From Lingula anatina (lineage: Eukaryota > Animalia > Brachiopoda): a stretch of DNA of 64,000 nucleotides. A program made the translations under genes and the position numbers. The DNA is taken from the NCBI GenBank assembly GCA_051362555.1, contig CM120646.1:3596001-3660000 (forward strand), in the 5' to 3' direction. Positions 3,010 to 57,891 of the stretch are shown in pieces; within the stretch, counting starts at the first letter, position 1, and every line of letters starts with the position of its first letter. Under the pieces are notes generated by a model. The model worked only from the letters and a program-made list of their open reading frames with translations. It made no database searches and was not told where the DNA came from.

Positions 3010-3171
3010 CAGGCCCGTAGCCAGCAATTTCAAAAGGGGGGTTCTTTTTCTGAAAAAGTGGACCTTTTTCCTCAAAAACTCCATGTACCTAGATCAAATA
3101 TTACCCAGAGTGGACCTTTCCCAGCAAAAGGTTCTTTCGAACCCCCCGAACCCCCCCTGGCTACGGGCCTG
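3010..3171 (+). mobile_element. MITE family A (hAT-like; TIR CAGGCCCGTAGCCA), inserted in a (GT)n tract
   Basis: Termini caggcccgtagccag ... ctggctacgggcctg; homologous copies at 17778, 43914 and 45732. Confidence 0.8.
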
Positions 3172-7200: not shown

Positions 7201-10200
7201 CTTTGCGGTACGTATTCCTAATAAATATTAATCAACATCACTTGTTTGCTATCAGCCATCGAGTTATGAAATGAATTTCTCTTTCGACAACTGTGGCCGT
7301 CTGCATATGTTGGTGAGCCACATTGTTGTAAGTTGTAGTGTTATGTGTCAATTGAAAACTGTCCATCGGAGCATTCAGTTGTAAAAGACAAGTTGCATGG
7401 TCTTTCCTATCATAGGTGCAAATAGACCATTGTGGATCTATTTAAAATTCCCCGAATAGAATCTGTGTAAAGAAATGACGTAATGTTTTTCTTGTGTAAC
7501 GAATACAAGTATCTTTATAGTTTGAAAAATGAAAAAACTAAACAGTACTTAGTTCTCGTGATTATTATTAAATGGTAAGCCTACAGTTTTATGTCAAAAT
7601 TCAGCTATATTTCTTTTCTTGAAAATCTTAAGTTTAAAAAGCCAGCTGAAGATATTTCAGATTGGAATAGAACGTTTCCTCATACGGAAGACATTCTAGT
7701 TATGAACTCGATTCATACTCTTCCAGATCAAAGTTTAATTACTTCCACAGTGTCAAGTTCCCCGTCCACTACTCCTACTTCTACAATGACCAGGCCACCC
7801 CCAATAATCGTGACAGTGTCAAAATCTCCTGGAACCTCCTCAGAACACAGCAGTACGAGCTTTAGGAAGCCAACAAAGGTTCTCATACCCACGCAGGACC
7901 TCTGGCCCAGTACAGGTACGGACTCCACGCCAGGATTATCTGGTCAGACTACGGCAAGAGGAACCCCAGGAACGAATTCTACTGTAAAGGCACCTGCAAC
8001 TCCAACCTTAAGACCGACGCCAATACTGACGCCAATGCCAACAGCACTGCGACCTAGTCCTACAGGGCTACGGCCGACGACTTGGCCCGGGCCGACGCCA
8101 TCTTCAACACCAATACCAAGACCTTCACTAATGCCGTCACGTACTGCAGAGCCAACGCCCACGCCACAAACTCCAAGAAGGCCTACCCCAACAAAAGGAC
8201 CGGGGCCACAGCCAACGCCCATGCCAGAAACTCCAAAAAGGCCTACTCCATCAGTGTTTCCGGGGCTAGAGCCAACGCCTTGGATACCGCCACGAACTGC
8301 AGGGCCAACGCCCATGCCAGAAACTCCAAAAAGGCCTACTCCATCAGTGTTTCCGGGGCTAGAGCCAACGCCTTGGATACCGCCACGTACTGTAAGGCCA
8401 ACGCCCATGCCAGCGACCACGCTATCGCCAACGCCATCGCCATCGCCACGTACTGCAGTACCAAGGCCAGGGACAGTTGTCACTCCTTCACCCAGTACTG
8501 TGACGCCGCAACCCAAACCACCCGACAAGACCCCCTCTTCGTGGACGGATGTCCCAACACGGTATGTGCCAGACCAAGGGTCTGGGGTAACCCATTTCAA
8601 TGTCAGCGTGACCTCCTCGTGGTCACCGAGTTTGCAAACGTCACCAACTACGTCAGCTACGACACACGAGGAGAAATATACGACAACCACCCTTGATGCA
8701 CGAGGCGAATGGACAACCGCAGGCGATAAGGGCCACTTGACATCACCTAGCGTGTGGTCAGCTGTGACTACCGCGGGCGAAACGGACGGTGTAACACCAA
8801 CGCTAATTCACCTGTCTTCAGATGTTACTATCTCCTTTTTGTCTAGAAATATAAGCGAAGAGCTCCTCTTCCTCTGTGAGTTTGATTTTCATCGCCCTTT
8901 CGATAGCAAGACGTGTGAATTGAAGGTAAGTGTATGTAGTGTATGTATAGTGTATGTTTGAATGGACACTTAAACAGAAGTTTATGTGCCGCTTGAAATT
9001 GGACATATGAACGCTTAAAATTTGTGAGGTCTTTTAACCCCTTACATACAGTCAAATTAACCTAACTTTTGCTGTCTGTTTGCACATGCAGCAGCAGTGT
9101 TTACCGCAAAGCTGGTCCCACCTACCTCGATCACTAAGCCACTTATCTTATCCTAAAAGATAAATGACATGGAACGTAAACCAATGAAACCTGCTCATGC
9201 ATGAACGGAATACCAAAGGTACTTCCTTATGGGGAATTCCCCTGGATTCTCCTCACATGTGACGTGTTTCTACTGGCTAGTACAGGTGCTGTCCTTAAAA
9301 CTGTCACGTGTTTTGTTTGCGGTTTGATAAATAAGCCGAGGCGTGTGCCTTGCTTAATGCTTTTCGACATCGTCTGGAGCACGCGCAAAGGCTTTTTTAG
9401 TCAAAGTAACTTACTGTTGAATCGAAAAATGTCACGATCGGTTTGATGCGGTGACAATAATGCAACCGTTTAGCAGAATAACATCACGGAATTTTCAGTA
9501 TATTTTTGTAATTTAAGCTACTGCCTTGCGTAGAAAGGAACCCGTCAAAGGACAGCGCGGTATCTAAGATAGAACAGGAACAAAACACACAACGAGATAC
9601 CATTTTGCAGTTCCGCTCCGACTACAAATTGTTTTGAAAACTTAACTTACACTGGTAGAAATGCACATCTAAATTGACTTCTTTACCGGACAAGCACTGC
9701 TGTTGAGTTAACGAGAATAAAGCGCAGCTTTGTCAATGGAAATGCCTGGGTCGTTAAGGAAGGTGGCGTGTGTTGTGTGAACCACCTGACGCTATACGTG
9801 TATGCAGAAAATCCGTTATCATGCCCACTGCGACAGATAACACGAACATGTATCAGTGACTGTTATTGATTCCCCCCACAGAAAAAAACTGCAGTATAAT
9901 GAAAGACTAACCAAACTTTTCTCTACCTTTTCTGACATACGCCATAACTCTGTAGGAATCTGGGAAAATTAAGTAGGCCTTAGCCCACACATAACGATGG
10001 TTTTCAAATTCCGCCCACCCTTCGGGCTCTACAATGTCATTAGGAATCAGCACGTTAAAAGTTAAACTGTCTTAAAAGACAGCTGACTGGCGGCAAAGTT
10101 CGACCTGGCTGTGGTAAAAATATTCATCAATTTTTATCAAAGAAAGGTATTTTGTATTTGTTTCTTTATATTCGTTCTCTATTTTAGTGGCTACGCCATG

Positions 10201-11349: not shown

Positions 11350-12027
11350 GTGCGCGCGCACACACATACTCGCACGTACGCTCGCGCATCTGTGCACATG
11401 AACTGACATAACTCGCATATTTAGTGCACCAATATTTCATTTTGCAATAATAATGGAAGACGTTAATATTAACATAAATGACTAGTTTCCGTTTATCTTA
11501 TAATGTTTTTCTTTCTTATTTTATTCATACTTTTAGTCCTAAGTGTCAGTGTTATAGAAGCCGTGGAATCAAGTCGAAGAACAATTCTCGTTCTCTCTCC
11601 GAGATTTATCGAGAACGGCTGGTGCAGATTTCACTTTCTTAGCGCGCAGTTGGAAATGCTTCAATCCAAGCACAGCATTATACCTTTGATATATGAGGAC
11701 ATAAGCAAAATAAGTTCCACAGACAAAGATCTCAGAAATATACTTAAGATCGCCAAACCAGTGCGGTGGCCATCTGAGAGAAGGCCTAGGACTGAAAACA
11801 ACTTCTGGGACCACTTGCATTTATTATTGCCAAAGAAACGAAAACCAGCGTCTGGTTTTAGGGTAAACTTTTCTCGATGGGTGTTTGCAAGCAATAAAGT
11901 GGATTATGTCAGTACAGATCTGAGTTATGACAATAGCAGGCCAAAATCGAGGTCCGAACGTTCAAACGGGGTCATAAGCCCGGCAGATTTTACGGACTTA
12001 AAACTCCACATAGAAGACATTGTTTGA
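3979..12027 (+). CDS. Single-pass Ig-TIR (IL-1R-like) receptor with N-terminal EMI-like domain and mucin-like stalk; 8 exons, 837 aa
   Basis: Exons 3979-4085, 5992-6090, 7116-7207, 7727-8925, 10188-10377, 10702-10893, 11078-11221, 11537-12027; all GT-AG and phase-compatible, 2514 nt in total. Signal peptide MRWFEIWLALCWVTVSLEKRTLA. EMI-like Cys pattern GGC...SCGIFGWGRC...KRCCENWTGELC. P/T/S-rich stalk. Ig domain LLFLC...LKWLRHG...LKISPLNRTDVGEYVCVAS. TM AAIATITGLALLFVVTVVVLPWVVY. TIR box1 YDVFVSY, box2 VCVDYKEFLPGE, SRRTILVLSPRF, box3 FWDHL. Confidence 0.9.
4166..4209. repeat. (CT)n microsatellite
   Basis: Direct observation; further (CT)n at about 10999-11025 and (CT)n(CA)n at about 11314-11350. 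Confidence 0.95.
5349..5563 (+). mobile_element. MITE family B (probably PIF/Harbinger-derived; CATTCCCA...TGGGAATG ends)
   Basis: Core ctccctggggg-ttcacgctaaattgcagtcagcc...ttagtaggcgggacagacgcttaagccggctaagctgac recurs at about 35130, 42259 (reverse) and 12230 (diverged); boundaries approximate. Confidence 0.7.
8212..8410 (+). repeat. Coding 93-bp tandem repeat (31 aa, PTPMPETPKRPTPSVFPGLEPTPWIPPRTAG) in the mucin stalk
   Basis: Near-identical units start at 8212 and 8305, with a partial third at 8398; degenerate PTP units lie upstream. Confidence 0.85.
9231..9242. promoter_or_regulatory. Perfect palindromic NF-kB (Rel) consensus site GGGGAATTCCCC in intron 4 of the TIR receptor gene
   Basis: Direct match to GGGRNWYYCC on both strands; a second kB-like site GGGATACCCC at 6841-6850 (intron 2). 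Function is not demonstrated. Confidence 0.4.
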
Positions 12028-13406: not shown

Positions 13407-16400
13407 ATGATCATCCGTGAGTGTTCTCTAGGTAAGTTATCTCAATGTCCATTTATTACACAATTTATAGATGCAGCTCCTCCTCCTGTCAGAAACTAGG
13501 CCGTAATTCTGCAACTGATTGCATTTTCTTGTGTGATTTGTACTGTTTGTTTCTCCATTTAATTTAAAAGATATTGATTTACGGTTTCTCACTCAATTGC
13601 ATTTTCTTACGTGACATGCACAATTTGTTTCTCTATTTAATGTGTAAGATATTGGTTTTAGATTCCCTCACTCTTGAACTAAAAAGGCATTGAAATCCGT
13701 ACTGTTTCTAAAAACAAAAGGGTGAATAAAAAGTTTATTTGAAGATACAAGGTTAAATGGGCAGTGCTAAAAAAAACGAGGGTCATGGTAACAGAGCGTC
13801 CGCCCTCCATTAAATTCGTACAGGTTAGGGTTATCGTGACGTAGGTGGGTCATATCTAGGATGAAGTTTACATGTACAAATCAATGGTATCCCGTATCAC
13901 TAGGGGCTTTGGTACGTGACATGCTTCTAACGCGTAACTGCACCATTGTATTGTAGCGCTAGTACTGTTGGTTAGCGTCTGGGCGTTCCCCAAACCTCCT
14001 CGAACCATACCGCCCGCGAACCCCAGCGACCCTGGCCGTCTGCCGGATGGCATACAAAAACGAGTTCTCGTTCTAGGTAAGTTTTCAAAAGGAGTTTAAA
14101 AAGGAGTTAACTCAGAGCTATCTGCGAACCTATAGGCCTATCTCGATCGGTGCCTCTTATTAATGCATTTTGTACTGTATTTTTGATCCTGGAACTTACG
14201 TTTGTAACCTGATAAATTGTTCTCTCACTAGTTCCAGTATCAGATTTATATACATATTTGTCACTCTAATTCTACTGGATGACTGAATACATCCATTCAT
14301 TAGTAGAGCATGTTCATACCATACATCTATTTAATTTTTGTTACTGCAATCATAGGATCTATCTATTTCGTTTCATATCGTGTATGTTTTCATTATTGTT
14401 GAATAACAACGTTTTAAACGTATCTTACCCATATTTTATGAAGCACGATTTAAACTAAAGTGACGCAACCGCACCGTACAGGCTTTCTTATGGAATGAAC
14501 TATTTTTATACGCACTTTACCAAGGTGGGGGCTTAGCTGGCCTCTCAGCTGCACTAGAGCTCGCGGAACGTGGCTATGACGTCACAGTTAAGGAGAAGAG
14601 TGACGTGTTCGGCGGGAAATTGTTTACCAGAAGGGTCGACATTCCAGGGCTTGGAGCTTTTGACGTCGAGCATGGCTTTCATGGTAGGGGGCTGCAGGGA
14701 CTGGGCATTATTCAGCCCTCGGGTCGGCGTCAAATTAAATGTTTTTTAAAGGGTCCATAAAATAATTGTTCTCTAAATTCTTCAAAATGAAAAAGAAAAG
14801 TTTTGGGAGGGGTTGGGGGAGATTATTTGTGAAAGAAAATCAGATCAGGTTGAGGTAAGACAGAACACAGATTTGCTAACAAATTGCTATTCAGACGAAT
14901 CGTTCAGAAAACGACCTATACGGGCTTTCTAAGTTATCAAACGACTTATATTTTTCATTAAATATGCGTTATTCATTAATCCTTGGAAAAAATCTTTATA
15001 AGTGGACTAATCAATATGTTCCTCTCAAGACCCTATTCTACATAGTTTTGTTTTAAAATACATTTTTTCTCAGTTCACATTCTCATTTCACAATCTATTT
15101 ATAATTTGCCATTCCGTAGCATGGTTCTTTAATTACCATCAATTCAAAGACATTCGCCAGCGTCTGAAAATCGACAACAATTTTCGGGTATGGAAGGCCG
15201 TCCACTACATCTTCTTGGACTACAAGCCGGAGACGATTTACAGCGAGGGACCTTATCCGCTCAACCTTTTAGGTAAGCTAGAGACCACAGTTTCTATATA
15301 TAAAATAATGTTAATCAAAAATTTAGCTTTTTAACACACGTAACTATTGTATGAAAAAAAAAAGAAAGAGAGAGGGGCGTATCCGTTAGCTAGAAACTAG
15401 TGAACATTAGGATGGGGCGTATACGTTCAACCAACTTAAACCCAACGAATGGAGTGGGGGCATTTTCGTTTAAGCTACTGGTGTGGGTGAGCTTAAACCA
15501 AATGGAATTTGGGATGGGGCATATTCGTTCAACCCATGGGTAGGCTAGAGACTATCGGACTTATGGAGAGGGCATATCCGAAACTAGGGACACTGAAGTT
15601 CTAAAGACCAGGGCACACTATTTCCTTCACTTTTTCTACTAAAATACTCATTGTCACTCATTGACTGGGTCAAAGAAATTATGCGTAATATTCAGCCCTT
15701 GTGTTACAATCCCAACTTTAGATCTTGTGTTACACGGGACTCAGAGTATTAATGAGACCTTGGACATAAATTCGTTATTATGTCCAAGATGAGGCCCTGA
15801 AGTTTTGTTACATCAGCCTGACACCATTGTGTCCAACGGACACCAAATGACCTTTCAGGTAACCATCTTGCCCTGGATTGTATGCACCAGTGTCCTCATC
15901 TCTTATGACAAAGGAAGCAGTCGTCACTTTATCAGGTTCAGTAAATAGATCCACTTAAATTGGTCGGGGCGTAGTCTAGAGGTGTCGTCAAACAAGGCCG
16001 ACTGCCTTTCATCTTGTTATCAAGGGCCTTTAATCAGATTGTCAAGGTCTCAAATGACTTGACGCCACGTGACTAAGGGCTCATTCCCAACGAAACTATC
16101 GTTCCACATAGATCGATCCGACATATCGGGGATTTTTGCTTATTATTATTATTATAGATGTGATGATTTTGCTGCTCCTCTCCTGTAGTAAGTGGTATAC
16201 CATTATCCTCAATGCCCTACTATGCTGTACTTCAATCACATACTAAAGGTTTCAAGACACAATGCTTAATTATTGAATTATTTATATTTTGATATGATAT
16301 AACAATATGAGCGAATTTGAATTAAATATAATATATGGCCAATGAAAAAATATATGGATACTAGTGGCAATACTAGCAACTAAATAATTAACTAATACGG

Positions 16401-19400
16401 TTGGGTGTTCGAAATAAGAAAGATTAAGCTTTGACCAATAGCAGCCTGTGTTTCATTTAATGCTGAAAATGATAAGGTTATTTCCATTCTTTTGATTAAT
16501 CTTAAAGCACGTAGTGCCTTTATTTATTATATCATTCTAGGCATTATCAGTAGGAGCCCCAATATCAAACTGACGGACGCTATTCTCTCCAGTCTAATGT
16601 TGCCAGATCTGGATTTTTTCGACTACGACACAGTGTATCAAAAGTAAGTACTGAAAGTTAAGTCTGCATCCGGGTCTTTGTAAGAAAATTGATTCATTAA
16701 TCTTTTATAGACAACGGCTTTGTTTAAAACATTAGGGCACTGTCTGTTTTTATTATCAATTTATAATTTATCACATTGGCATTTATTGTACCTGTAGACT
16801 GGAAGGTTTTTGACAAAGTTATTGGATTAGCGATTTTAGCACCATTACACTGTCTCGTCTTGTACATATGCTGTTGCATAAAGTAACTTTTGCCTCAAAA
16901 TGTGATGATGATTTTGTCTTTTGACCAAAGTGACACAAAAAGGATATTTTCCAAGAATAATATACGCAAACAAATAAGATACCCACATGACGAAAAATGA
17001 TCTGTGGAATAATAACAATAATATCATTGTTTTTAAGGTATGATAACATAACATTTGACCAGTGGGCCACCATGCGTGGCGTGCAACGAGATCTGAACGA
17101 TATTCTCCTTCGTCCCGCCCTCTCTGTGACCTTGAACGAACCCAGGGCCATCAGTGCAGCTGAGATGCTCATGTAATTATACTTATATGATTTATGATTA
17201 TAACTTAAAGAATGCTTAATAAAACGGAAAACTAACTTTAAAATAACAATATTGGGTTTGAAGTTTTGGTGTATAGAGGGTTTGATTAAAAATAAATAAT
17301 GCCCCGACTGAACTTCAAAAGTGATGTATACATGTATGCTTTATACCGGAACACGTATCTCAAATTATTCGCTATGGTTTATAGTTTATTGTTGACATTT
17401 AATACCTCTGGCACCTCTGGTGTTTAATAAAAGTAATGTTCAAAAAGGCATATATTTTTGATACTAGGAATATTTTACCTGTTTCCCCGTTTCAATTAAG
17501 ACCAATCTAGTAAGTGGAGAGGGGGCGCAATATTTCCTATTAAATTAATACAGGTAAAATTTAGTGTAATTTGTGCTCCATAGATGAATAAATTATCAGA
17601 TTTGAAGCATATTTTAACATAGGTACATGCAGCTCTATTTCCTGACCAATGCGGAGGCTGACCACCGCGAGGTGACCATATACAGCTTTGGGAAAGCCAT
17701 CCTGCAGCCCTGGCTTGATCGGCTGTCCGAGCTCCATGTGAAGTAATTAATTTTTTTATAAAAAATGTTTGTAAGAACAGGCCCGTAGCCAAGGGGGTTC
17801 GAAAGAACCACCCCTTTTGCTGGGAAAAGGTCCACTCTGGGTAAAATATAATCGAGGTACATGAAGTTTTTTTATGGAAAAAGGTCCACTTTTTCAGAAA
17901 AAAAAAAAACCTTTTGAAATTGCTGGCTACGGGCCTGTAAGAATCTGAACAGCGCATGGGTAAGGTACTATTTTACATTATAGTGTGAGCAGGGGACTAT
18001 CAATAATAATAATAATAAGATTCTTATATGGCGCCTTACATTCTATCTCAAGGCGCCTTACAATAATGGCTAATATACTAAAATCATTAAAATGACTACA
18101 ATATTTTAATCATAAACTCTCATTGGAAACCATTTAAAATTTACACTACTAAAAATCAATCTTATTAAAAAACATATATATATTTAAATAAAATCTAAGA
18201 GACATAGACAGAATTAAAAATGTCAATTAGTTTAAATAAATCTTGCGTGAAATTTCGAATAAAATGTTTTACACCATTGATAATCCAGACACAAAAATCA
18301 TTAATTTATATTTAACGCGCAATGAATAGGAATACAGTTCTTTGCAATATTATGTTAACATGAAAGACCGTCAGTCTACAGCTGTACACGTGTTCCTATT
18401 CTAACAGGTTGCATTCCAACTATTCAGTTGAGCGTCTAACCATAAGTGACCAAGGACAGGTGACCGGTGATAGCAAGGACGCTGTCGTGTATGATCACGT
18501 GGTTTCAGCGATGGACATCGTGGGCACGCAAAGCGTTCTGAATGCGACTTTGTCTTATTACGGCAATAAACCCATAATAACGGATAGTCTGTCTAAACTA
18601 TGGAGTAAAGTGTCTCGCATGAAGTTAGCCCCACCTTATAAGGTAGGCACAGTTAACGTTCTCTACAATTATGCAATTACAGACTTCTTTTGAAAAGGTA
18701 ACATTTTGGCGATTACTTCATTCAAATACATATCTTCTAAAAAGCTCGTCTGATATCATCGTTTTCTGATGAAGCATTGTCAGTTGTACACGTTAAGCGG
18801 ACACTCAAACGCCTGATGATTCAAATACAAAGTGAATACTGCTTTTAAAATTTATATTCACACATAAAGGATACTTATTTCAGACCTAATTTATCAGAAA
18901 GAAAAAAGAGAGCAAACCTGATTATATTTTTGCACCCCTTTCCGCCAGGTTCTCCGTGTTTGGTTCGACAAGCAGCTCAACGCGTCCACACCAGATATTC
19001 TCGAGACTCCCCAACACACCCCAGTCAACCTCGTGGCGCAGTACCACCGCCTGGAACAAGAGGCCAGCGCCTGGGCCAACAAGACCGGTGGTTCTGTACT
19101 GGAATTCCACCTTTACAAATGGGCGCACGGCGACGTTACAGACGATCAAGTGTGGACAATAATTTCTCCCACGGTGAAGCTGATTTATCCAGAGATTTTC
19201 GAAAGGATGTTCAATATTTTAGGCTACCATGTCAACTCGTTTGAGAACTTTTCATCTTTTGAACTCAACTTGCAGATGTTCCGGCCTAATTCGTCCTTCC
19301 CAATGGAATGTGGTCTGCCAAATTTGCATCTTGCCGGTGATTGGTTAAAAACGGCGTATCCTTCCGCGTTGATGGAGAGGGCGGTGTCAACAGGCCGAGA

Positions 19401-19485
19401 GGCAGCCAACCAGATTTTACTATCTGATCGCGTGAAACAAGTAGAGCTCATCGTGACATCTTCTAAGGGTCCAGGAATACTGTAA
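13407..19485 (+). CDS. CrtU-like (isorenieratene synthase / carotenoid phi-ring synthase family) FAD-dependent oxidoreductase with signal peptide; 9 exons, 528 aa
   Basis: Exons 13407-13431, 13957-14076, 14525-14683, 15120-15272, 16541-16643, 17038-17172, 17623-17742, 18408-18642, 18949-19485; all GT-AG and in phase, 1587 nt. Rossmann motif RVLVLGGGLAGLSAALELAERG...EK...GGK, then VEHGFHAWFFNY, SAAEML, APPYKVLRVWFD, WANKTGGSVLEFHLY and LAGDWLKTAYPSALMERAVSTGREAAN; I recognise these as CrtU-family motifs from memory. The 25-nt first exon is the least certain. Confidence 0.88.
17778..17937 (-). mobile_element. MITE family A copy in intron 7 of the CrtU-like gene, with 6-bp TSD TAAGAA
   Basis: taagaa|caggcccgtagcc ... 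ggctacgggcctg|taagaa; reverse orientation relative to the 3010 copy. Confidence 0.85.
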
Positions 19486-43913: not shown

Positions 43914-44063
43914 CAGGCCCGTAGCCAGCAATTTTAAAAGGGGGAGGGTCTTTTTCCATAAAAACGCCATGTACCTAGATCAAATTTTACCAAGAGTGGA
44001 CCTTTTGTCAGCATAAGAGGCGGTTCTTTCGAAACCCCTGAACCATCCCTGGGTACGGGCCAG
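43914..44063 (+). mobile_element. MITE family A copy (diverged right TIR)
   Basis: Colinear similarity to 3010-3171. Confidence 0.75.
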
Positions 44064-45731: not shown

Positions 45732-45792
45732 CAGGCCCGTAGCCAGCAATTTCAAAAGGGGGGTTCTTTTTCTGAAAAAGTGGCCCTTTTAC
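45732..45792 (+). mobile_element. MITE family A, truncated left end
   Basis: Matches roughly the first 55 bp of the 3010 copy. Confidence 0.7.
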
Positions 45793-46207
45793 CATATAAT
45801 CCCTGAGGTTGCAAGTGAGACTTGCGTGGTCCAAGATGCACGTCGCAAGCAATGAAGGAGAAGTGCCCTTTGCGTGTTGAGCACGGCGCACGCCCTCACA
45901 TCTATAACGAAATAAGTCGAAAACACGGCGGGACTGCGAGTATAAAAGGCGTGCTCACGACGCATGCTCGTGTCTCTACAATTTCGTTGTGCAAAAATTT
46001 TGAATTTTGCTCAATTCAGATTCTAATATGCCTCCAAAAGACAAGGGAAAGAAGCTTAAAGAGCAGAAAAGAAGGTTGGAGGAAGAAGACAGAAAACGAA
46101 GCGCTTTAGCACTGCTTTTTTATTACTTAATAATTTAACGAATTTATCATTGCCTGAAGAAAAGACATAGCTGCGTTATCTTAGATAAAAACTAACTTTG
46201 CTTTAAG

Positions 46208-47575: not shown

Positions 47576-47857
47576 TATTTCTTCAGTTTTTGTCACTATC
47601 AAATACTCGGTATAGGGGGCGCGAAACTGAGGGTCTGTGTGACAGAAAGTCCGTCCTCCATATAGTTATAATGGTTCTGGTTACTTTGATCTGAGTGGGT
47701 CAAAATCTAGGGCGAGGCTCACCTGTACAAATAAATGGGAAGCGGACTCTACATGTATGTCATGGGGGACCTTCTGGTACATAAACAATATAATTGTTTT
47801 GAATCTTACAGACATCCGTTTCTAAACTGCCATTTGGCTGTTTTCTTTGAGCAAATG

Positions 47858-50800
47858 TCAAACTTCCTCTACCGAAAAATCTTCATCAACTTGTACACCA
47901 AGTCTATTCAAACGCGTCACTTCCATCTTTGCCAACATTTCGTTTTTCGTCGATCCTTTGACCTCACCAGCCACCCTGTAAAGCTTTGCCAGTTCCTTGT
48001 ATACTGTCAACGGCATTTTAGATTTTGGGAATTGCTCATGAACCTGAGGAGTTAATTCAGCAGCTTCTTGCAAGTTGGACCGACTTTGTTCATATAGATT
48101 TCGATATTGATCACAGCGTAGAGCCCCTTGGCGCGGTCTACCAGTCGCCTTGGGCATTGTGTTTTGTTCATTCGTGGACAAATTACTATCATGATGTTCA
48201 AATGCTTGTTCACATTTATTGCTGTTATTTTCAGTAACCACAGTCTGTCCATTTGGTGCCACGTTTTCTTGGTCAACTCGTTGAGCCACTGCCTCGTATA
48301 TTTGCTCAGCCTGTGCCTGTCCTAAATGAAGCAGGTGCTCAACCAATGTGAAATGAATAGGTGTATGTTCTCTACGGATGTCAACAGCTTTCTGAAAATA
48401 ATCCACAGCTTCAGGAAACTCTTTTTTCTTCATACAAACAAGTCCAAAGTCATCATAAATGAGAGCTATATCTGTCGTCTTTCCAATCTTCTGACACATA
48501 GAAAAAGCATCTTGCAGCATAGACATAGCTCTGTCAAAATTCCCCGTTTTGACATAGAGCATTGCTGTATTACTTAGAGAGTAAACGATGGACAGGTTGG
48601 CTTGTTTCATACATCTTCGTTTGCATCTAAGACCACATTCGAAGTTCTTCAGTGCATTATCATCCTCTCCCAACTCGCGATATGTCAGACCCATATTGTT
48701 GTAGACAGCCCCAATGGAAGGATGATGCTCTCCAAAGTTAGATATGCGTAAGTCAAGGGTATCCTCAAAATATTTTATGGCTTTTTCTTTCTCTCCTGCA
48801 ATTACCATGAATAAGGGCAATGTTGATACCATTATTGGTTTTTGCACAAAGGCGCATGAGTTAACTAATACAGGTAGTGGCACACTGCCAATGACGTATT
48901 ACGTATACACTTACAGCTTGCGAAATAGCTTAATTTCCTAAGAAAATTGACTCTTTTCAATTTCAGCCGTTCTTCAGTTTATTTGCTCCTTAAATAGATC
49001 ACGCTCCTATTTTAAAACGACGAAGATTTCGTAACGTGATAACCTCACTCACCCATTATAGAAAAGACGAGGCCCTGGGTCGAAAGGGTTTGACTCATAA
49101 GAAGGCTTGCTTGCATACCCCCCTCTTCTTCCAGTTTGTATGCTTTCTGAAGGTACCTGTCATTATAATATAACCTCTACTCAAAGATTCATAGTCCAAA
49201 ATATATGAGAGTCGGGATTCACATGGCAGGTCTCTTTAGAAACTGTTTGACACTGATATCTTTTAACAGGAGAAAATAAAAGATGCATATTTCTCTTTAG
49301 AATGTGTTTGGTGCAAAACCTTTAATTCATCTTTAAGACTTACCTCTGTGACTTATTCAGGTGGCCATATTTGTAGTAGTTCCAACCCAGATGCTGGTAC
49401 AGAGAGGCCATGTCTACAGGAGTACCCTTGAGGGAAAGAATTACCCTCGCCTTCTCATAATAATCTATGCCTTTTTGTATATCACCCTGAAATATGCATA
49501 GCAACTGTCATATAGACACACGTGCACAAATGAAACCACTTTACACAAAACTGAAAAAGAAAAAATGAGCAAATGACCTTAAATCATAAATGAAGTAATA
49601 ACATTAGAGCCAATAAGTTGCAATCTTTAAATAGGCATACCCAACGGATCCAATGTTAAAAGAAACGGTGCGTCTTCTTTTATAAATATAGAAAGTCATG
49701 CAAATCGTATACCTTTCAATAATTATTTATGTACCTCAATATTGGTCACTGCCTGTGCGTATGCTGATAGCATAAGTCCATGATGTCTGTGGTCAGCACC
49801 GTCAAACATTCTAGACTGCTCCATCATGTCTTCGTAAAAGCCAATGCTTTCTTCTGCAAAAATAGCTAGTCCGTTAACGTGATTGAGAAATATGTTTTAT
49901 AGATACTGGGCCTATATTATATATTTGATATTTTTGAACAACCGTCTTGTTAAAATGTGTTTACTTTGTACAGTATCATCTTGCCCGACCGTGCCTCCGT
50001 TATTAACGGGTACTTTCCCAATAGATTAATTTTTACCGACAAAATAATAATCTTCATTGGTTCTCGGACATTTTACATTTCTAATGTACATTTTCAGCTA
50101 CCCACATAAATATATACACACGCTGCAAAGAATGAAGCATTTTACATTATACAGAAAGCAAAGTAATACATGCACATGCAAAATGTTAAAAAAATTGAAA
50201 TATGCAGATCTACAAAGACAAACTCTAGTATACTTGTTAGTTTTTCAATAAAGAAAAAATAAATAATAAAAATAATTCAATAACATACTTTGGAAGAAAC
50301 TAATGATAGGGTATTCTGCCAGCACAGCCACTTTGATAAAACTTTTGTAGCTGTCTTCATTACAATGCATCGCCTGTGTGAGCAGCTTCTCCAAGTTCTT
50401 CCATTCCACGTCCATGGTGGCAGTGGCAAACATTGAGTTCTTGGACAGCATTTGGTTATTAACACACTGAAGAATATCTGCGAAAAACTTACTATAACGG
50501 AGCCTCACCACTGAAAATAACACAATATTGTTGATTTTATAATGAGAAAATTCTTAGAAGATATGGTACAATCCGCTAAATTTTAATTTCATTTGGATGA
50601 ATTCCTTAAATAGTTTCAGTGTATCGCAGCTTAAATTATCAACAAATTAGGGCATTCAGCCTATATTTTTGCTTTATGTTTTCTCTCTCATTTGTTATTT
50701 TTAGTAAAATATTCAAGAAATGAATACACGCCTAAAATAGAAATTTCAAAAGGGGGTTGTCTTGGTTGAATCGTCGGGGGTGGGGGTAGGGAAAGAATTG

Positions 50801-52033: not shown

Positions 52034-53165
52034 TCAAAGTATTTCACAGTATGACAATATTTCTACCTAAACATTTATTTTCCATAGTAAACCTACCTAT
52101 TCTCTCAGAGTCAGAGAAACTCTCGTCACTGAGAGCTTTCAGCCGTTCTTCCTTCATGAGGTCCAACATTTCACTTGGGCTCAGATTACCATCACGTAGA
52201 ATGCTCCCTGGGAAAATTCGAGGTATATATTCTCAAGAAAATATTTAAACAAAATGAAAAAAATATTATTTGATAGATAAATAAGTAATGGTTAGAAAGT
52301 AAATAATACCCAGTCTCTTTTTGTCTAGAAAATTCGAGGTGTTCTCAAGATAATACTTCAACACATTAAATGGATGAATGGACAAATACATAACGACAAT
52401 AAAGTTTAAAAATCCACTTTCGTAATTGTGTAACATATAACTTCCCGGAAATGTATATAAATTCGACTTACCTACAATGATTAGAGCAAGGGGCAATCTT
52501 GCACATTGTTCTGCAAGTTGAGTTAAAGTATTATCATCTATAAATGGACCTTCATTTTCTGCATCGGAGTGAGGAAAAGTGTCAAGCAATAAGGCTTTTG
52601 CGTCCGAAACACAAAGTGGCATTAAACTCTGTTCAAAATATACTCTATTCAGTCTTGCGAACTGAAACTTGGTGCGAGAAACGATGAAGATCCTCACATC
52701 AGGGCACTGGTTTATGACGTCAAACACAAACGTGAGCAGCACATTCTGCAGGTTATGACTGACGTTTCTCGTAGTTGCCTCAGACACGGCAATGTGTTCG
52801 CATTTTTCAAAAATTAACACACAGGGAGCAATATTTTTTAAATGTGCGATGCTTTGTTGCTGCAGCAGCTCAGGGGTTGAATCGTCGGTAAGCAAAGGCA
52901 CTTTGTCTTCTAATAATTCGAGAGCAACGTACTTAAAGAAGTCTTTTGCACTGTTTACACTTTGCATCGACACGAACATAGTGCATAGGTCACCATTATA
53001 CGCCTTTGCAGACACCTGTCTCAAAATCTCCCGCGTTAAGCTTGCCTTACCAATGCCGGGAGGGCCATAGATACCAAATATCCGATGCTGTGTCCAAGTA
53101 TCTGTTATAAGTTTTATTTCCTTTTCTCGGCCGAAGAAAGTAGGGTGTTCTAAATGGAACGCCAT
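47858..53165 (-). CDS. NB-ARC/STAND NTPase-TPR (NLR-like) protein; 9 coding exons, 872 aa
   Basis: Exons 53165-52472, 52207-52097, 51673-51560, 51100-50927, 50510-50289, 49853-49735, 49486-49344, 49156-49053, 48795-47858; all GT-AG and in phase, 2619 nt. FFGREKEI; P-loop GIYGPPGIGKAS; Walker-B position VLIFEKCE; sensor IVSR; GLPL-like CARLPLAL; winged helix VKELLRVSMI...RYDIQSL; kinesin-light-chain-type TPRs (HPSIGAVYNNMGLTY). The start could extend via an upstream exon (acceptor at 53209). Confidence 0.88.
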
Positions 53166-55712
53166 GTTGTTTACTATTGACACGTGATGCAAAGGAAATT
53201 TGACCTTTCTGCAACAAAAGAATCAGCTGTGATCATTCAGTTCAACTGCGTGCAGTAGGTTCCTGCCTTGTGAACTAGCACACCTACATGTAAGGGGTAT
53301 AAAGGTGATAATATTTTAGTTGGAAGACCAAAATAAATGTAAATTTACAGTTTTCGAAAGGATGCAGGAGACAATTTAGAATGTATCAATATAGGGTTGT
53401 CTTCTAGGGGTAATATCTATAGGAAGATTGGGCCGATGATTAAGTTGGGTTAAATACGTGCGTTATATTGGACCGGTATGTACCTACATTGACTTCTATC
53501 ATGATCAGTAGCATAGGAAGCAAATTTTAAGTGAGGGTTGGAGGGGGTACAATTCAGAGAAAAAGCTAACAGAAAGCGAAATATTTTTACCATTTAGAAT
53601 AAAGGTAAGAGAACGCGAACATCTTTTTTTCCATCCTCTGGTTCTTAGTGCGTTCAATGTACTAAAAATGTGACTCACGTGGCTGAAAATGTATGGGAGA
53701 TGATACTGCTCTTAGACCTACCAGTAAATGTACCTTATATACCAGCCCAGACATTGATGTCTGAACTCACCTGTATTTATCTCTAGCCTATTGCAAATCA
53801 ATGCTACACATTTGGTCATGGCCTAAATAGCGAAACCATAGGGAAGTCCACTTATTTGTCACAGTTCTAAAAATACATGGGCTTTTTAAATTATGAATAG
53901 AAGTGTGGTGAGCGTAAACAATGCTTAAAGCACTCTCCTGTCAAAAGACAATAGGTCGCGCCGTGCTTTATTTCGTGTAAAGTCACGTCACCACGAATGC
54001 GTTCCACGCACCAGTGCACAGGGTTAATTACTCATGCTTTAAGCCAGATAAAGCACTCGGCGCTGAGCTTTACGCGAAATAGAGCAGATAATTGTCTCGG
54101 CTTCGCCTCGCCAATTATCTGCTCTACCTTATGTCTACAAGCGAATATACCGACACTTGATACAAGTACTTTTACAGGTTATATGTCGTAGGCCAGGTTG
54201 AAATTCAAGTCCAAATTGTAAATATATTAATCACACCCCAACAAAACCATTTGAGTTTTACAGTCAATGGATTAGAACATCTTTGATCAAATATTTTCCA
54301 TATGGGTATAACTTGATTTTAATTTTTTTTTCTCACATAGAGGTTCTTTTAACTAATCTGTTAGCATGGCATGTACATAGTACTTTTAAAAAACATTTTG
54401 AAATTTCTGTGCTTCTTACATGGTTCTTCGAGTTAAACTGGGATGTACTCTCAGTAGATTTTGTTGACTGAGGTTCATGGATTAAGGCTTGTGACGCATT
54501 TAAGAAATGAACACAAATACTAAAATAATATTCTGAAAATATTGTACAAATTTATATCATTTTGTAAATATGTCAAAATACAATTGAATCAAAGTCACGA
54601 AGAAACAAAGTTTCGTTTATCACTATTCATATCTATTAATTGTATTGGGAACACAGCGCTTACTAGCTTTAATACATGTACAAGCAAAAAGCTGTTTTGC
54701 CACAAAGGCCAACGTATTTTAATGATAACATTTCTAATATTATTAATATTACTCTTCAGAGACAGCCAAAAGACGACTTGAACTACTAACTAATTTCATT
54801 ATATCATATGTAGTAAAACTTTTTTTCATTTGGAATAGTCCCATGGTATCGTGCAGCGCATTACAATACAGTCATTTTTTGTTTGATATTTGTTTGATGC
54901 AGCTGTTCTAGTGACATGATTGCACAAGTACATGTACGCCACACAAGACAAAACTTATTTTAGTCTTGGACTGCCAGTCAGATAAGATAAAGAAAGAGAA
55001 AAAATAAACAATCATCTCATACAATTATAAATATTGGATAATACAAGACATTTTGAAAGGAGATGTATGCCAGGAATAATAGTTCGGATTTCGGTGGATA
55101 TCAAAGCGGATATTTTGTGTCATCCTGTCACAGTTGTCGTATCACAATAGGAGGAAAGAAGCAGATTGCGTTAGATGTGTCTCAGGGCTGGTGGCGAAGC
55201 AATTATAATTGGAGAGGGGGTACCTGTTTTAGGTCCACAATATACATGGTATAATGTTATTTAGATTGCCCTTGGATCTTTCTAAGACGCTTAATGACCG
55301 AGAGATTGAAGAAGTCTTATATTTTTAAAAGAACTCTTCAGATTTTTTTTCAAAATCTCAGTACCCCGCAGCCTAAGCCCCGAGTTGTTCTAGGAGCATA
55401 ACACAACAGCAGGCTATGTTGTATGTTCAGCCGGTCATTTTGTTCAATCCACTCAATTAAAATGCCAATCAGAAGCTGTTTGTAATGGGACCCCAGTTTC
55501 ATTCTGTACTTTTTTTGTACTAGCACCGCTGAACAGTTTTTCAAAGAACAAAACCGTTTAATACTAACCTGAACATATTTTTTTGTTTTCGAAAAAAAAA
55601 AACATTTTTGTCACTATCAAATACACGGTAGTGGTATATACGATATAACAGATTTGAATCCTACAGACACCCATCCCTAAACTGCCAATTGTCTTTATTC
55701 TTGGAGCAAATG

Positions 55713-57891
55713 TCATGCTTCCTCCATCGAAAAATCTTCATCAACTTGTACACCAAGTCTATTCAAACGCGTCACTTCCATCTTTGCCAACATTTCGTTT
55801 TTCGTCGATGCTTTGACCTCACCAGCCATCTTGTAAAGCTTTGCCAGTTCCATATAAACTGTGAACGGCGTTTTAGACCTTGGGAATTGCTCATGAACCT
55901 GAGGAGTTAATTTGGCAGCTTCTTGAAAGTTGGACCGACTTTGTTCATATAAATTGCGATACTGATCACAGCAAAGAACCCCTTGGTGTGGTCTAACTGT
56001 CGCCTTGGGCATGGTGTTCTGTTCATTTTTGGGCAAAATACCAGCATGGTGTTCAAACACTTGTTCACATTCATTGCTTCTATTTTCAGTAATCGCTGTC
56101 TGTCTATTTGGTGCCACGTTTTCAGGGTCAACTTGTTGAGCCACTGCCTCGTATATTTGCTCAGCCTGTGCCTGTCCTAAATGCAGCAGGTGCTCAGCCA
56201 ATGTGAAATGATTAGGGGTATGTTCCCTTCGGGTGTCAACAGCTTTCTGAAAATAATCCTCAGCTTCAGGAAACTCCTTTTTCTTCATACAAACAAGTCC
56301 AAAATCATCATAAATGAGAGCTATTTCTGTCGTCTTTCCAATTTTCTGGCACATAGCTAATGCCTCTTGAAGCATAGGCAAAGCTCTCTCAGTATCCCCC
56401 TTTCTGACGTAAAACATCGCTGTGTTACTCAAAGAGAGAACCACGGCTAAATTGGGTTGTTTCATAAATTTTTGTTTGTATCTCAGACCAAGTTCAAAAT
56501 TCTTTAGTGCTCGGTCATCATCTCCCTGCTCAAGATATGCCATTCCCATGTTGTTGTACATACCACCGATGGAAGGATGTTCTCCAAAGTTGGATATGCG
56601 TAACTCTAAGGAGTGCATAAAATAGCGTATGGCCTCTTTAAGCTTTCCTGAAATTATCATGAATTAGGGCATTGTGATGTCATTCATTTTTTTAGCTTAT
56701 AAAATACAACAAAAAAAAAACAAAAAAAAACAAAAAAAAAACAAAAAAAAACAGCTGAATTTCATATACGTATACTAATACATGTACCACACATACTGGT
56801 AGCCTTTATCATACAACTGTGTTCATTTCCAATTTTATGCTCTAGTTCAAAAGCGCTAAAATTCTGAATGTGTGATGTGATGATTTTACTCACCTATCCC
56901 TGTAAAAACGAGGCCCAAGGTCGAAAGGGTTTGACACATAACAAGGTTTGTGTGCATTCCACCATCCGTTTCCAATTTGAATGCTTTCTGAAGGTACCTG
57001 TAAATACAACATCATCTATATTTAAAGGTACATATGAACCGTTGGAGCGTGGATTCCCAGTAACACATATAAACCAATTCTACCACCTGTAGTTTCTTAT
57101 ACAACTCAAATGAATTCGATATGCCAAGGAATAAACTGATTAAATCACCCAATCAGCCATAATAGAGCTTTAGTTTGCTCCCTTCTTTAAAAATTTGGTC
57201 AGAAGTAATCCTACTTATCTAACCTTTTTTCTGCCCCTTTTAAATACAGCAGAGAAAGCTAGCAGAAAAATCCGCTCAAATATCACTTTACGGGTAATAT
57301 TAGACAATGTATTCTGGTAATTCTCCTAGTGATACTGTTTGAAATTATAAGCTGGCATTTGGTTGGCTTCTGTGGCAAAATATCGACTTTATATGCAGCT
57401 TAAAGGTTACATTACTTATATAACTAAAAGCCAATATCCTACATGAGTCCTATAGGACACTATGGGACCCTAAAGAAATGATATTGCGCGTCCTATAGAC
57501 TTCCTATTCAGAAGACATGCTCTATAGGACCCCAGAGGTTTTTTGGGCCAATTTCCAATGGAACGACCAACAAGACCCTATAGGAATACCAGAAAGTGAT
57601 GTGTCAAATGTAAAAAAATTGTTTTATCTTGGAAGAAACGATCGAGTCTTAAATGTAATCACCTTATTAGAACACTGATAGATTCAACAAAAATTAATTC
57701 CATCACAGAGTGGGTTGGCGCAAAAGCTAAAGCTCATCCTTAACCTACCATTGTGACTTATTCAGGTCACCAGTCTTGTAGTAATTCCAACCCAGGTGCT
57801 GATACAGAGAGGCCATGTCTATAGGAGTTCCCTTGACGGAAAGAATTACCCTCGCCTTCTCATAATAATCTATGCCTTTTTGTATATCTCC
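55713..57891 (-). CDS. Tandem paralog of the NB-ARC-TPR gene, last three exons only (5' part outside the window or lost)
   Basis: Exons 57891-57749 (143 nt), 56997-56894 (104 nt) and 56647-55713 (935 nt) mirror the paralog-1 exons (143/104/938). Open frame, conserved splice sites and a shared 3' flank (tttttgtcactatcaaatac). Confidence 0.85.

Follow-up and report, generated by a model that had tools for sequence, protein, structure and literature searches.

An apparently exported sister family of the carotenoid phi-ring synthase CrtU in Lingula anatina and other eukaryotes: a candidate carotenoid beta-ring oxidase

The stretch of the Lingula anatina genome analysed here (64,000 nucleotides of contig CM120646.1, positions 3,596,001 to 3,660,000; referred to below as the window) contains a nine-exon gene for a 528-residue protein related to CrtU. 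An earlier note had read it as a bacterial-type aromatic-carotenoid synthase, acquired horizontally by the animal. By sequence comparison, the protein appears instead to represent a distinct exported sister family of CrtU, spread over invertebrates, protists, fungi and bacteria. What would such an enzyme do in an animal? Is it still making aromatic rings? The answer we favour, tentatively, is that it is a secretory-pathway flavoenzyme of the phytoene-desaturase/CrtU fold which would oxidise the beta-ring of dietary carotenoids to non-aromatic products. The sequences are already on record; the exported CrtU-sister family as such has apparently not been studied. As the earlier note suspected, automated annotations exist: RefSeq proteins of echinoderms, hemichordates, a chiton and a nemertean are labelled 'carotenoid phi-ring synthase-like', and these are the orthologues, at 40-59% identity. 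Such names are automatic only, and other family records are called phytoene desaturase, zeta-carotene desaturase or amine oxidase. In the literature searched we came upon no work on the family in eukaryotes, although the supplements of PMC4729200 and PMC11211512 may mention it and most subscription papers lay outside the search; the main text of the hemichordate genome paper (PMC4729200) contains neither 'carotenoid' nor 'desaturase', its supplements being outside that check. The other papers cited below were available in part, and statements drawn from them hold for those parts.

The family was traced with exon 9 and the brittle-star orthologue as queries (for the latter, the best 120 of 671 matches) plus cluster look-ups. 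Among the matches listed, the named animal members come from Lingula, a chiton, a nemertean, a rotifer, all five echinoderm classes and three hemichordates, which makes six phyla by our own phylum labels. Other named eukaryotes are Vitrella, two Nannochloropsis species, Acrasis, Quaeritorhiza, Saitoella and Amoeboaphelidium; the bacterial members, mostly Myxococcota where named, include Sorangium, Bradymonadia and loosely labelled metagenome-assembled genomes. Measured against the window protein, animal members are 40-59% identical (n=15), members from other eukaryotes 47-49% (n=4) and the family's bacterial members 42-47% (n=10); CrtU types that have no Rieske domain reach 23-28% (n=33) and Rieske types 26-31% (n=13). 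A profile search of 1.84 billion representatives set the family apart from the CrtU types by this gap too. The window protein carries the whole family signature, with 40-60% identity, a hydrophobic or twin-arginine N-terminus, W103, A244/R247 and a C-terminal GPG. No sponge, cnidarian, chordate, arthropod, nematode or annelid is among the named matches, but most matches are nameless, so this does not amount to absence. A search for short proteins returned fragments only and no new named phylum, a degenerate DNA pattern had zero matches in 80 loci, and an order-level genome search was positive in one of eight genomes, with nothing new. A scan of genome contigs, swamped by a generic FAD motif, gave CrtU-type and distant loci only and no family member. 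Echinoderms often have two paralogues; in Holothuria the two bear consecutive accessions and go by the names phytoene desaturase and zeta-carotene desaturase. Among the members from fungi and aphelids, Quaeritorhiza haematococci and Amoeboaphelidium protococcarum are parasites of algae and Saitoella is a pigmented yeast.

Is this family simply a branch of CrtU? An IQ-TREE mixture-model tree was built from 55 chosen rows and a further tree from 30 chosen rows, with reference CrtUs picked by cluster context and organism and not by published assay. In the 55-row tree a long branch of 1.12 changes per column (support 91/92) parts the family from the CrtU and CruE types (94/76). The eukaryote-like rows stand together (93/97), as do the 14 named animals (100/99), with the spiralians grouped and two ambulacrarian paralogue groups. 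A topology forcing the animals to join the Rieske-less CrtUs is rejected by the approximately unbiased (AU) test (p=1.7e-6). The 30-row tree splits eukaryote-like from bacterial rows at 100/98, and a first tree by FastTree, from which two outgroup rows of the phytoene/zeta-carotene desaturase (PDS/ZDS) or HpnE-like kind were left out for wrong frames, nests the eukaryotes within the family's bacteria. On these alignments the family is the sister of CrtU/CruE. Thus, what the earlier note called CrtU-like holds insofar as no characterised family stands nearer than CrtU/CruE, in the tree or in predicted structure, and fails insofar as it implied a place inside bacterial CrtU. The protein's place is in a broad clade of eukaryotes that either is sister to an uncharacterised clade of bacterial proteins or arises within it, and this is largely the outcome that the note had named as contrary to its own proposal.

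From the trees, the gene appears to be old in animals and common to distant eukaryotes, with a likely bacterial ancestry. It may have entered eukaryotes from bacteria once, long ago, or have been shared between both from an early date; the last common ancestor of Spiralia and Ambulacraria, at the latest, would already have had it, and patchy losses would have followed. In the 30-row tree, with long rows added, animal monophyly falls to 55/68 and the branching order among eukaryotes is unsettled; because of this fall, several eukaryote-to-eukaryote transfers are possible. A recent transfer of an actinobacterial-type crtU into the brachiopod line, with introns gained afterwards, could draw on the patchy distribution and on the animal groups lacking from the named matches. 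It has to contend with orthologues from six animal phyla in one strongly supported clade, which run counter to a lineage-specific acquisition, with the AU test and with the clean split between eukaryote-clade and bacterial rows; it is refuted as stated, and we give it next to no credence.

Pfam domains and structural models place the protein in the FAD-binding PDS/CrtU fold. A model of the brittle-star orthologue, with a predicted local distance difference test (pLDDT) score of 95.5, has rice phytoene desaturase as its best solved match (template-modelling (TM) score 0.77, Z 37.6, root-mean-square deviation 2.3 A; next Z 26.7). For the Lingula protein itself, the atlas model comes closer still to CrtU-type clusters (TM 0.87-0.91). 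Exon 9 alone has no meaningful match in the PDB. All five motifs that the earlier note took as diagnostic of CrtU are present, but they are not diagnostic, and H[AG]FF and FHxYF, typical of CrtU/CruE, are absent from 15 out of 15 named animal proteins. Its statement that the Rieske insert is missing was right (there is no CxHxGC motif), whereas the tie to the actinobacterial type that it drew from this was not, identity being 23-28% to that type and 26-31% to Rieske types. The CrtU and Rieske/CruE types have 66 conserved columns in common; the window protein retains 48 of them and departs from 18, a count that does not decide CrtU chemistry. E229, Y237, R353, W355, W392, E402, H404, Y406 and P488 are among those kept, and are absent from two PDS/ZDS-type rows; the changes include F103W, F214A, H235Q, G244A and D377N, and R247 is new. 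A further 38 alignment columns are specific to the family.

How does the protein compare with enzymes of known function? The Rieske-less CrtU of Brevibacterium, Mycobacterium and Streptomyces is a beta-carotene desaturase and methyl-shift enzyme with a phi-ring product (PMC7395447). The window protein resembles it in fold (TM 0.87-0.89 between predicted models), in lacking the Rieske insert and in keeping most conserved residues, RxWxD, WxxxGGSVxExHxY and LMExA among them. It differs in its separate clade, in its predicted signal peptide, in W103, A244, N377, R247 and Q235 where CrtU has F, G, D, F and H, and in that the family's bacterial genes lie outside crt clusters. Chlorobi CrtU and cyanobacterial CruE match at TM 0.89-0.91, with an identity slightly above that of the Rieske-less type and a twin-arginine-like N-terminus that the family's bacterial members also have, but they too lie in a clade apart from the family, and their Rieske CxHxGC motif (13/13) occurs in none of 30 rows comprising the window protein and named family members. 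No Rieske Pfam domain was found on family members among the matches listed. PDS (PDB 5MOG), besides being the best solved structure, gives the best PDB sequence match (E 2e-10). Identity to the window protein is 21-22%, Arg300 becomes Tyr in the latter, and PDS and ZDS act on acyclic carotenes in plastids. On the corresponding NCBIfam models (TIGR02731, TIGR02732) eight family members scored 43-69 bits, against cut-offs of 569 and 622. The HpnE model TIGR03467 gives 97-154 bits for the family and 130-161 for CrtU controls (cut-off 283), and no family member matched the CrtO ketolase model NF045689 at E 1e-10. Membership was thus rejected for CrtU (tree, gene context) and for CruE, PDS, ZDS, HpnE and CrtO (own models). 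CrtO, an enzyme with an FAD/amine-oxidase domain that yields echinenone (PMC7463686), belongs to the same wider amine-oxidase clan; it is related to CrtI and not to PDS/CrtU, and serves only as a model of mode of action. The family enzyme may share its mode of action with CrtO or with the opening step of CrtU.

The N-terminus sets the family apart from the Rieske-less CrtU types, which in simple hydropathy and pattern tests mostly have neither a hydrophobic N-terminus nor a twin-arginine-like motif. In the same tests 38 of 39 scored eukaryote-clade proteins have the former and 25 of 41 bacterial members the latter. The window protein itself has a hydrophobic, signal-peptide-like N-terminus and seven N-x-S/T sites, of which N190 recurs in 27 of 41 eukaryote-clade rows, and is predicted to enter the secretory pathway and be glycosylated. 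A twin-arginine-like N-terminus was also seen in 17/17 Rieske-type CrtU/CruE-like proteins, which suggests that CruE is exported or membrane-anchored.

What, then, would be the substrate? Kinship and conserved cavity residues argue for a ring-bearing carotenoid, and because of export it would be met in the endoplasmic reticulum (ER), the gut lumen or the periplasm. The active-site positions of PDS are Phe162, Arg300 and Leu538 (PMC5703498); F104, Y237 and P488 take these places in a pairwise alignment, the latter two as in CrtU. In the mechanism we propose, the carotenoid, carried by a membrane or lipid particle in the ER or gut lumen, would pass from there into an elongated hydrophobic cavity, and FAD would take a hydride from the allylic C4 of the beta-ring, assumed to be the first step of CrtU chemistry. 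The resulting cation could gain water, giving a 4-hydroxy and on a second pass a 4-keto product, or alternatively lose a proton to give a 3,4-didehydro product. It would not progress to the methyl shift and aromatisation, and the flavin would be reoxidised by quinone or oxygen. By analogy, the product is most likely a 4-keto carotenoid such as echinenone, which is favoured over aryl rings because the well-profiled hosts hold ketocarotenoids. A review of marine-animal carotenoids gives aryl carotenoids in sponges only, and echinenone, canthaxanthin and astaxanthin in echinoderms (PMC3093257); as no named family match comes from a sponge, this argues against an aryl product. Sea urchins make echinenone from beta-carotene in the gut wall (PMC12729423), and according to PMC12631484 no P450 ketolase has been reported from echinoderms. 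Nannochloropsis, which carries a family gene, VYU27_007844 in N. oceanica, has canthaxanthin and astaxanthin formed by a ketolase not yet identified (PMC11606307, PMC11211512). One idea, albeit a doubtful one, is that this family supplies the beta-carotene ketolase still sought in both sea urchins and Nannochloropsis.

Several points weigh against a beta-ring oxidase. The substrate is deduced from kinship alone and the activity is known only as a prediction, and the PDS residues were mapped from an alignment at 21-22% identity, not from coordinates. Known animal ketolases are cytochromes P450, which have also been proposed for sea cucumbers (PMC12631484). No crustacean is named among the matches listed, though crustaceans ketolate strongly; their ketolase genes are given as unidentified (PMC7600253). 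Chitons carry the gene, and ketocarotenoids are not among their listed major pigments (PMC3093257). A foreign ketolase in Nannochloropsis was active only when targeted to the plastid (PMC11606307), which makes an ER-lumen ketolase a poor fit there, and no matching name occurs in the red-body supplements of PMC11211512, files 8-9 and the protein table lying outside that check. The bacteria add three more points: no carotenoid gene lies near the family gene in any of eight loci scanned (two of them under 3.3 kb), one of four host genomes, possibly incomplete, has neither crtB nor crtI, and one host also has a CrtO-like gene (321 bits, below the cut-off).

These hosts come from a phylum sample of a Nannocystis-labelled genome, where the family gene turned up in four of 401 genomes, scoring 786-834 bits; CrtU types got no higher than 280. 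crtB and crtI are found elsewhere in three of the four and a clear lycopene cyclase in two; fatty-acid-desaturase matches were seen in the four hosts. In the loci the open reading frames (ORFs) came from a simple script and some may have been missed, and another two loci have neighbours in common with one of those scanned. The neighbours encode exported lipoprotein-like proteins, di-haem cytochromes (RoxA-like in one lineage) and hydrolases, whereas five of six CrtU-type control loci adjoin crt genes. With no crt neighbours and with crt genes elsewhere, the gene appears to encode an exported enzyme that acts on its own, in tailoring or catabolism, and not a step of a pigment operon. In the one lineage (L111-L114) the family gene converges on the gene of the RoxA-like cytochrome c; RoxA cleaves polyisoprene. 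A conserved bacterial partner gene was considered and dropped: small downstream lipoprotein-like ORFs fall into two non-matching groups, and the one that was compared with the window lacked a counterpart there. A Myxococcota-group genome with the family gene (G155) also has a cluster of rhodopsin, blh, crtY, crtI, crtB and crtE (L142, 2538-9815). In myxobacteria, only cyclase-CrtU fusions, a different group, are noted in the available part of PMC9304148.

Could the enzyme be a true ring aromatase after all, like CrtU/CruE, one that desaturates the beta-ring, moves a methyl group and turns beta-carotene from food into pigments of the isorenieratene or renieratene type? The gut lumen might be the site, and the pigments would then be voided and not stored. 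CrtU/CruE is its sister group and nearest predicted structure, at the far end, however, of the branch of 1.12 changes per column. The 48 retained columns of 66 fit aromatisation, and the missing H[AG]FF and FHxYF of the named animals do not. Export is compatible with it, Rieske-type CrtU/CruE being twin-arginine-like too, but the bacterial genes keep none of the crt company of the CrtU controls. Echinoderms, chitons and Nannochloropsis have no aryl carotenoids listed in the parts of the papers available, while gut contents and brachiopod pigments were outside the scope of those papers. On balance we think this improbable. Another isoprenoid or lipid (apocarotenoids, retinoids, prenyl-quinones, tocopherols, phytyl chains or squalene-type compounds), handled by a digestive or detoxifying oxidoreductase, would suit the neighbours seen in bacteria, the lack of linkage to carotenoid genes, the 38 family-specific columns and hosts that are largely grazers, filter feeders, algal parasites or predatory bacteria. 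Among NCBIfam models HpnE scores best, far below its cut-off, but HpnE also tops the CrtU controls and so does not discriminate. This second option is at odds with the CrtU-type residues kept at the PDS active-site positions and with the carotenoid genes of most of the bacterial hosts; it seems to us unlikely, if somewhat less so than aromatisation, and the beta-ring oxidase is still the reading we lean to.

The gene is a genuine Lingula gene. Its parts, with the mobile element in one intron, a miniature inverted-repeat transposable element (MITE), are as follows (window positions; strand in brackets).
13407..13431 (+) Exon 1: start codon and first part of the predicted signal peptide; from the coordinate join, N-terminus identical in RefSeq XP_013399612.2, no RNA depth
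13957..14076 (+) Exon 2: rest of the predicted signal peptide (to ~13985), proline-rich family N-terminus, start of the FAD-binding fold
14525..14683 (+) Exon 3: GGGLAG dinucleotide-binding motif through EHGFH; Pfam NAD_binding_8 and Amino_oxidase above cut-off
15120..15272 (+) Exon 4: from the coordinate join, in agreement with RefSeq
16541..16643 (+) Exon 5: the RefSeq LOC106179957 model places the acceptor 33 nt upstream
17038..17172 (+) Exon 6: SAAE motif
17623..17742 (+) Exon 7: Q235/Y237 at the place of CrtU FHxYF; family-specific R247
17778..17937 (no strand) MITE in intron 7: 160 nt, 14-nt terminal inverted repeats, 6-nt flanking direct repeat
18408..18642 (+) Exon 8: ends at APPYK; joined to exon 9 in RNA reads
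18949..19485 (+) Exon 9: RxWxD, TGGSVxExHxY and ALMERA motifs, family C-terminal GPG, stop

The signal-peptide cleavage site in exon 2 was placed by hydropathy and homologues, without a signal-peptide predictor. Joined by coordinates, the nine exons give 1587 nt, or 528 residues and a stop, and all eight introns are GT..AG, which bears out the ORF described in the earlier note. RefSeq XP_013399612.2 (Lingula anatina LOC106165797) also has 528 residues, five of which differ from the window protein, and an independent gene model therefore agrees with all exons. Exon 9 is 99% identical to a Lingula anatina protein. A second RefSeq model, LOC106179957, has a different N-terminus lacking the signal-peptide exons and an 11-residue insert; its N-terminus is apparently mis-modelled. 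The two loci, on separate scaffolds, encode the protein at 97-99% identity and could be alleles or recent copies; within the window the gene is single-copy. Transcripts were sought in eight of nine raw RNA runs of the same species, 6-30% of each run being covered. The exon 8-9 junction (a 306-nt skip, GT..AG) is spliced in three of the eight, with 4, 2 and 9 sense reads, all from one study, whereas no spliced joint was listed for the other seven introns. The RNA check proposed in the earlier note is thus borne out at one junction; exons 1-7 are essentially without depth in these runs, so their junctions rest on the RefSeq model and homology. Antisense reads run over exon 9 into intron 8 (18930-19274; three runs, one study), possibly from an overlapping minus-strand transcript.

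The MITE reported in intron 7 is real: the inverted ends of this copy are perfect, and sister copies lie at 3010-3171, 43914-44039 and 45732-45799. The MITE family has CAGG ends, and thousands of RNA reads derive from other copies. The neighbouring genes are animal-type and immune-type, with a TIR-domain exon upstream (11527-12024) and STAND-NTPase and TPR exons at 52326-53219 and 47858-48895. The introns, the MITE, these neighbours and the spliced reads together rule out bacterial contamination, as the earlier note maintained. The GC content at third codon positions is 0.58 in the gene and 0.45 in a neighbouring exon, which is uninformative. The upstream gene (7579-8961 and 11527-12024, +) has an unusual receptor-like layout, a long Pro/Thr/Ser-rich exon being followed by a C-terminal TIR domain. 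On the minus strand (47781-48898, 52266-53222, 55636-56684) lie a STAND-type NTPase exon and duplicated TPR-rich exons, 84.5% identical over ~1 kb, labelled here tandem NLR-like immune genes.

What does the family mean for carotenoid biology? The RefSeq label 'carotenoid phi-ring synthase-like' covers a distinct, apparently exported family, not CrtU itself. The family also bears on whether eukaryotes make aryl carotenoids, which serve as sediment biomarkers. It is unlikely, in our judgement, that bilaterians, some fungi and several protist lines have held their own exported aromatase of dietary beta-carotene since before the Spiralia-Ambulacraria split; the missing-ketolase reading is slightly the likelier of these two. 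Were the aromatase real, isorenieratene-type pigments would come from eukaryotes too, a source so far overlooked; in fossil form they are now read as markers of sulfur bacteria and cyanobacteria. It would matter because sponge aryl carotenoids are credited to microbes (PMC7395447). Few of the animal enzymes that modify dietary carotenoids have been identified, and those with ketolase activity in the papers used are P450s. The family is a concrete candidate for echinenone formation in the sea-urchin gut, on which the colour and value of roe depend, and a candidate for the formation of canthaxanthin and astaxanthin in Nannochloropsis.

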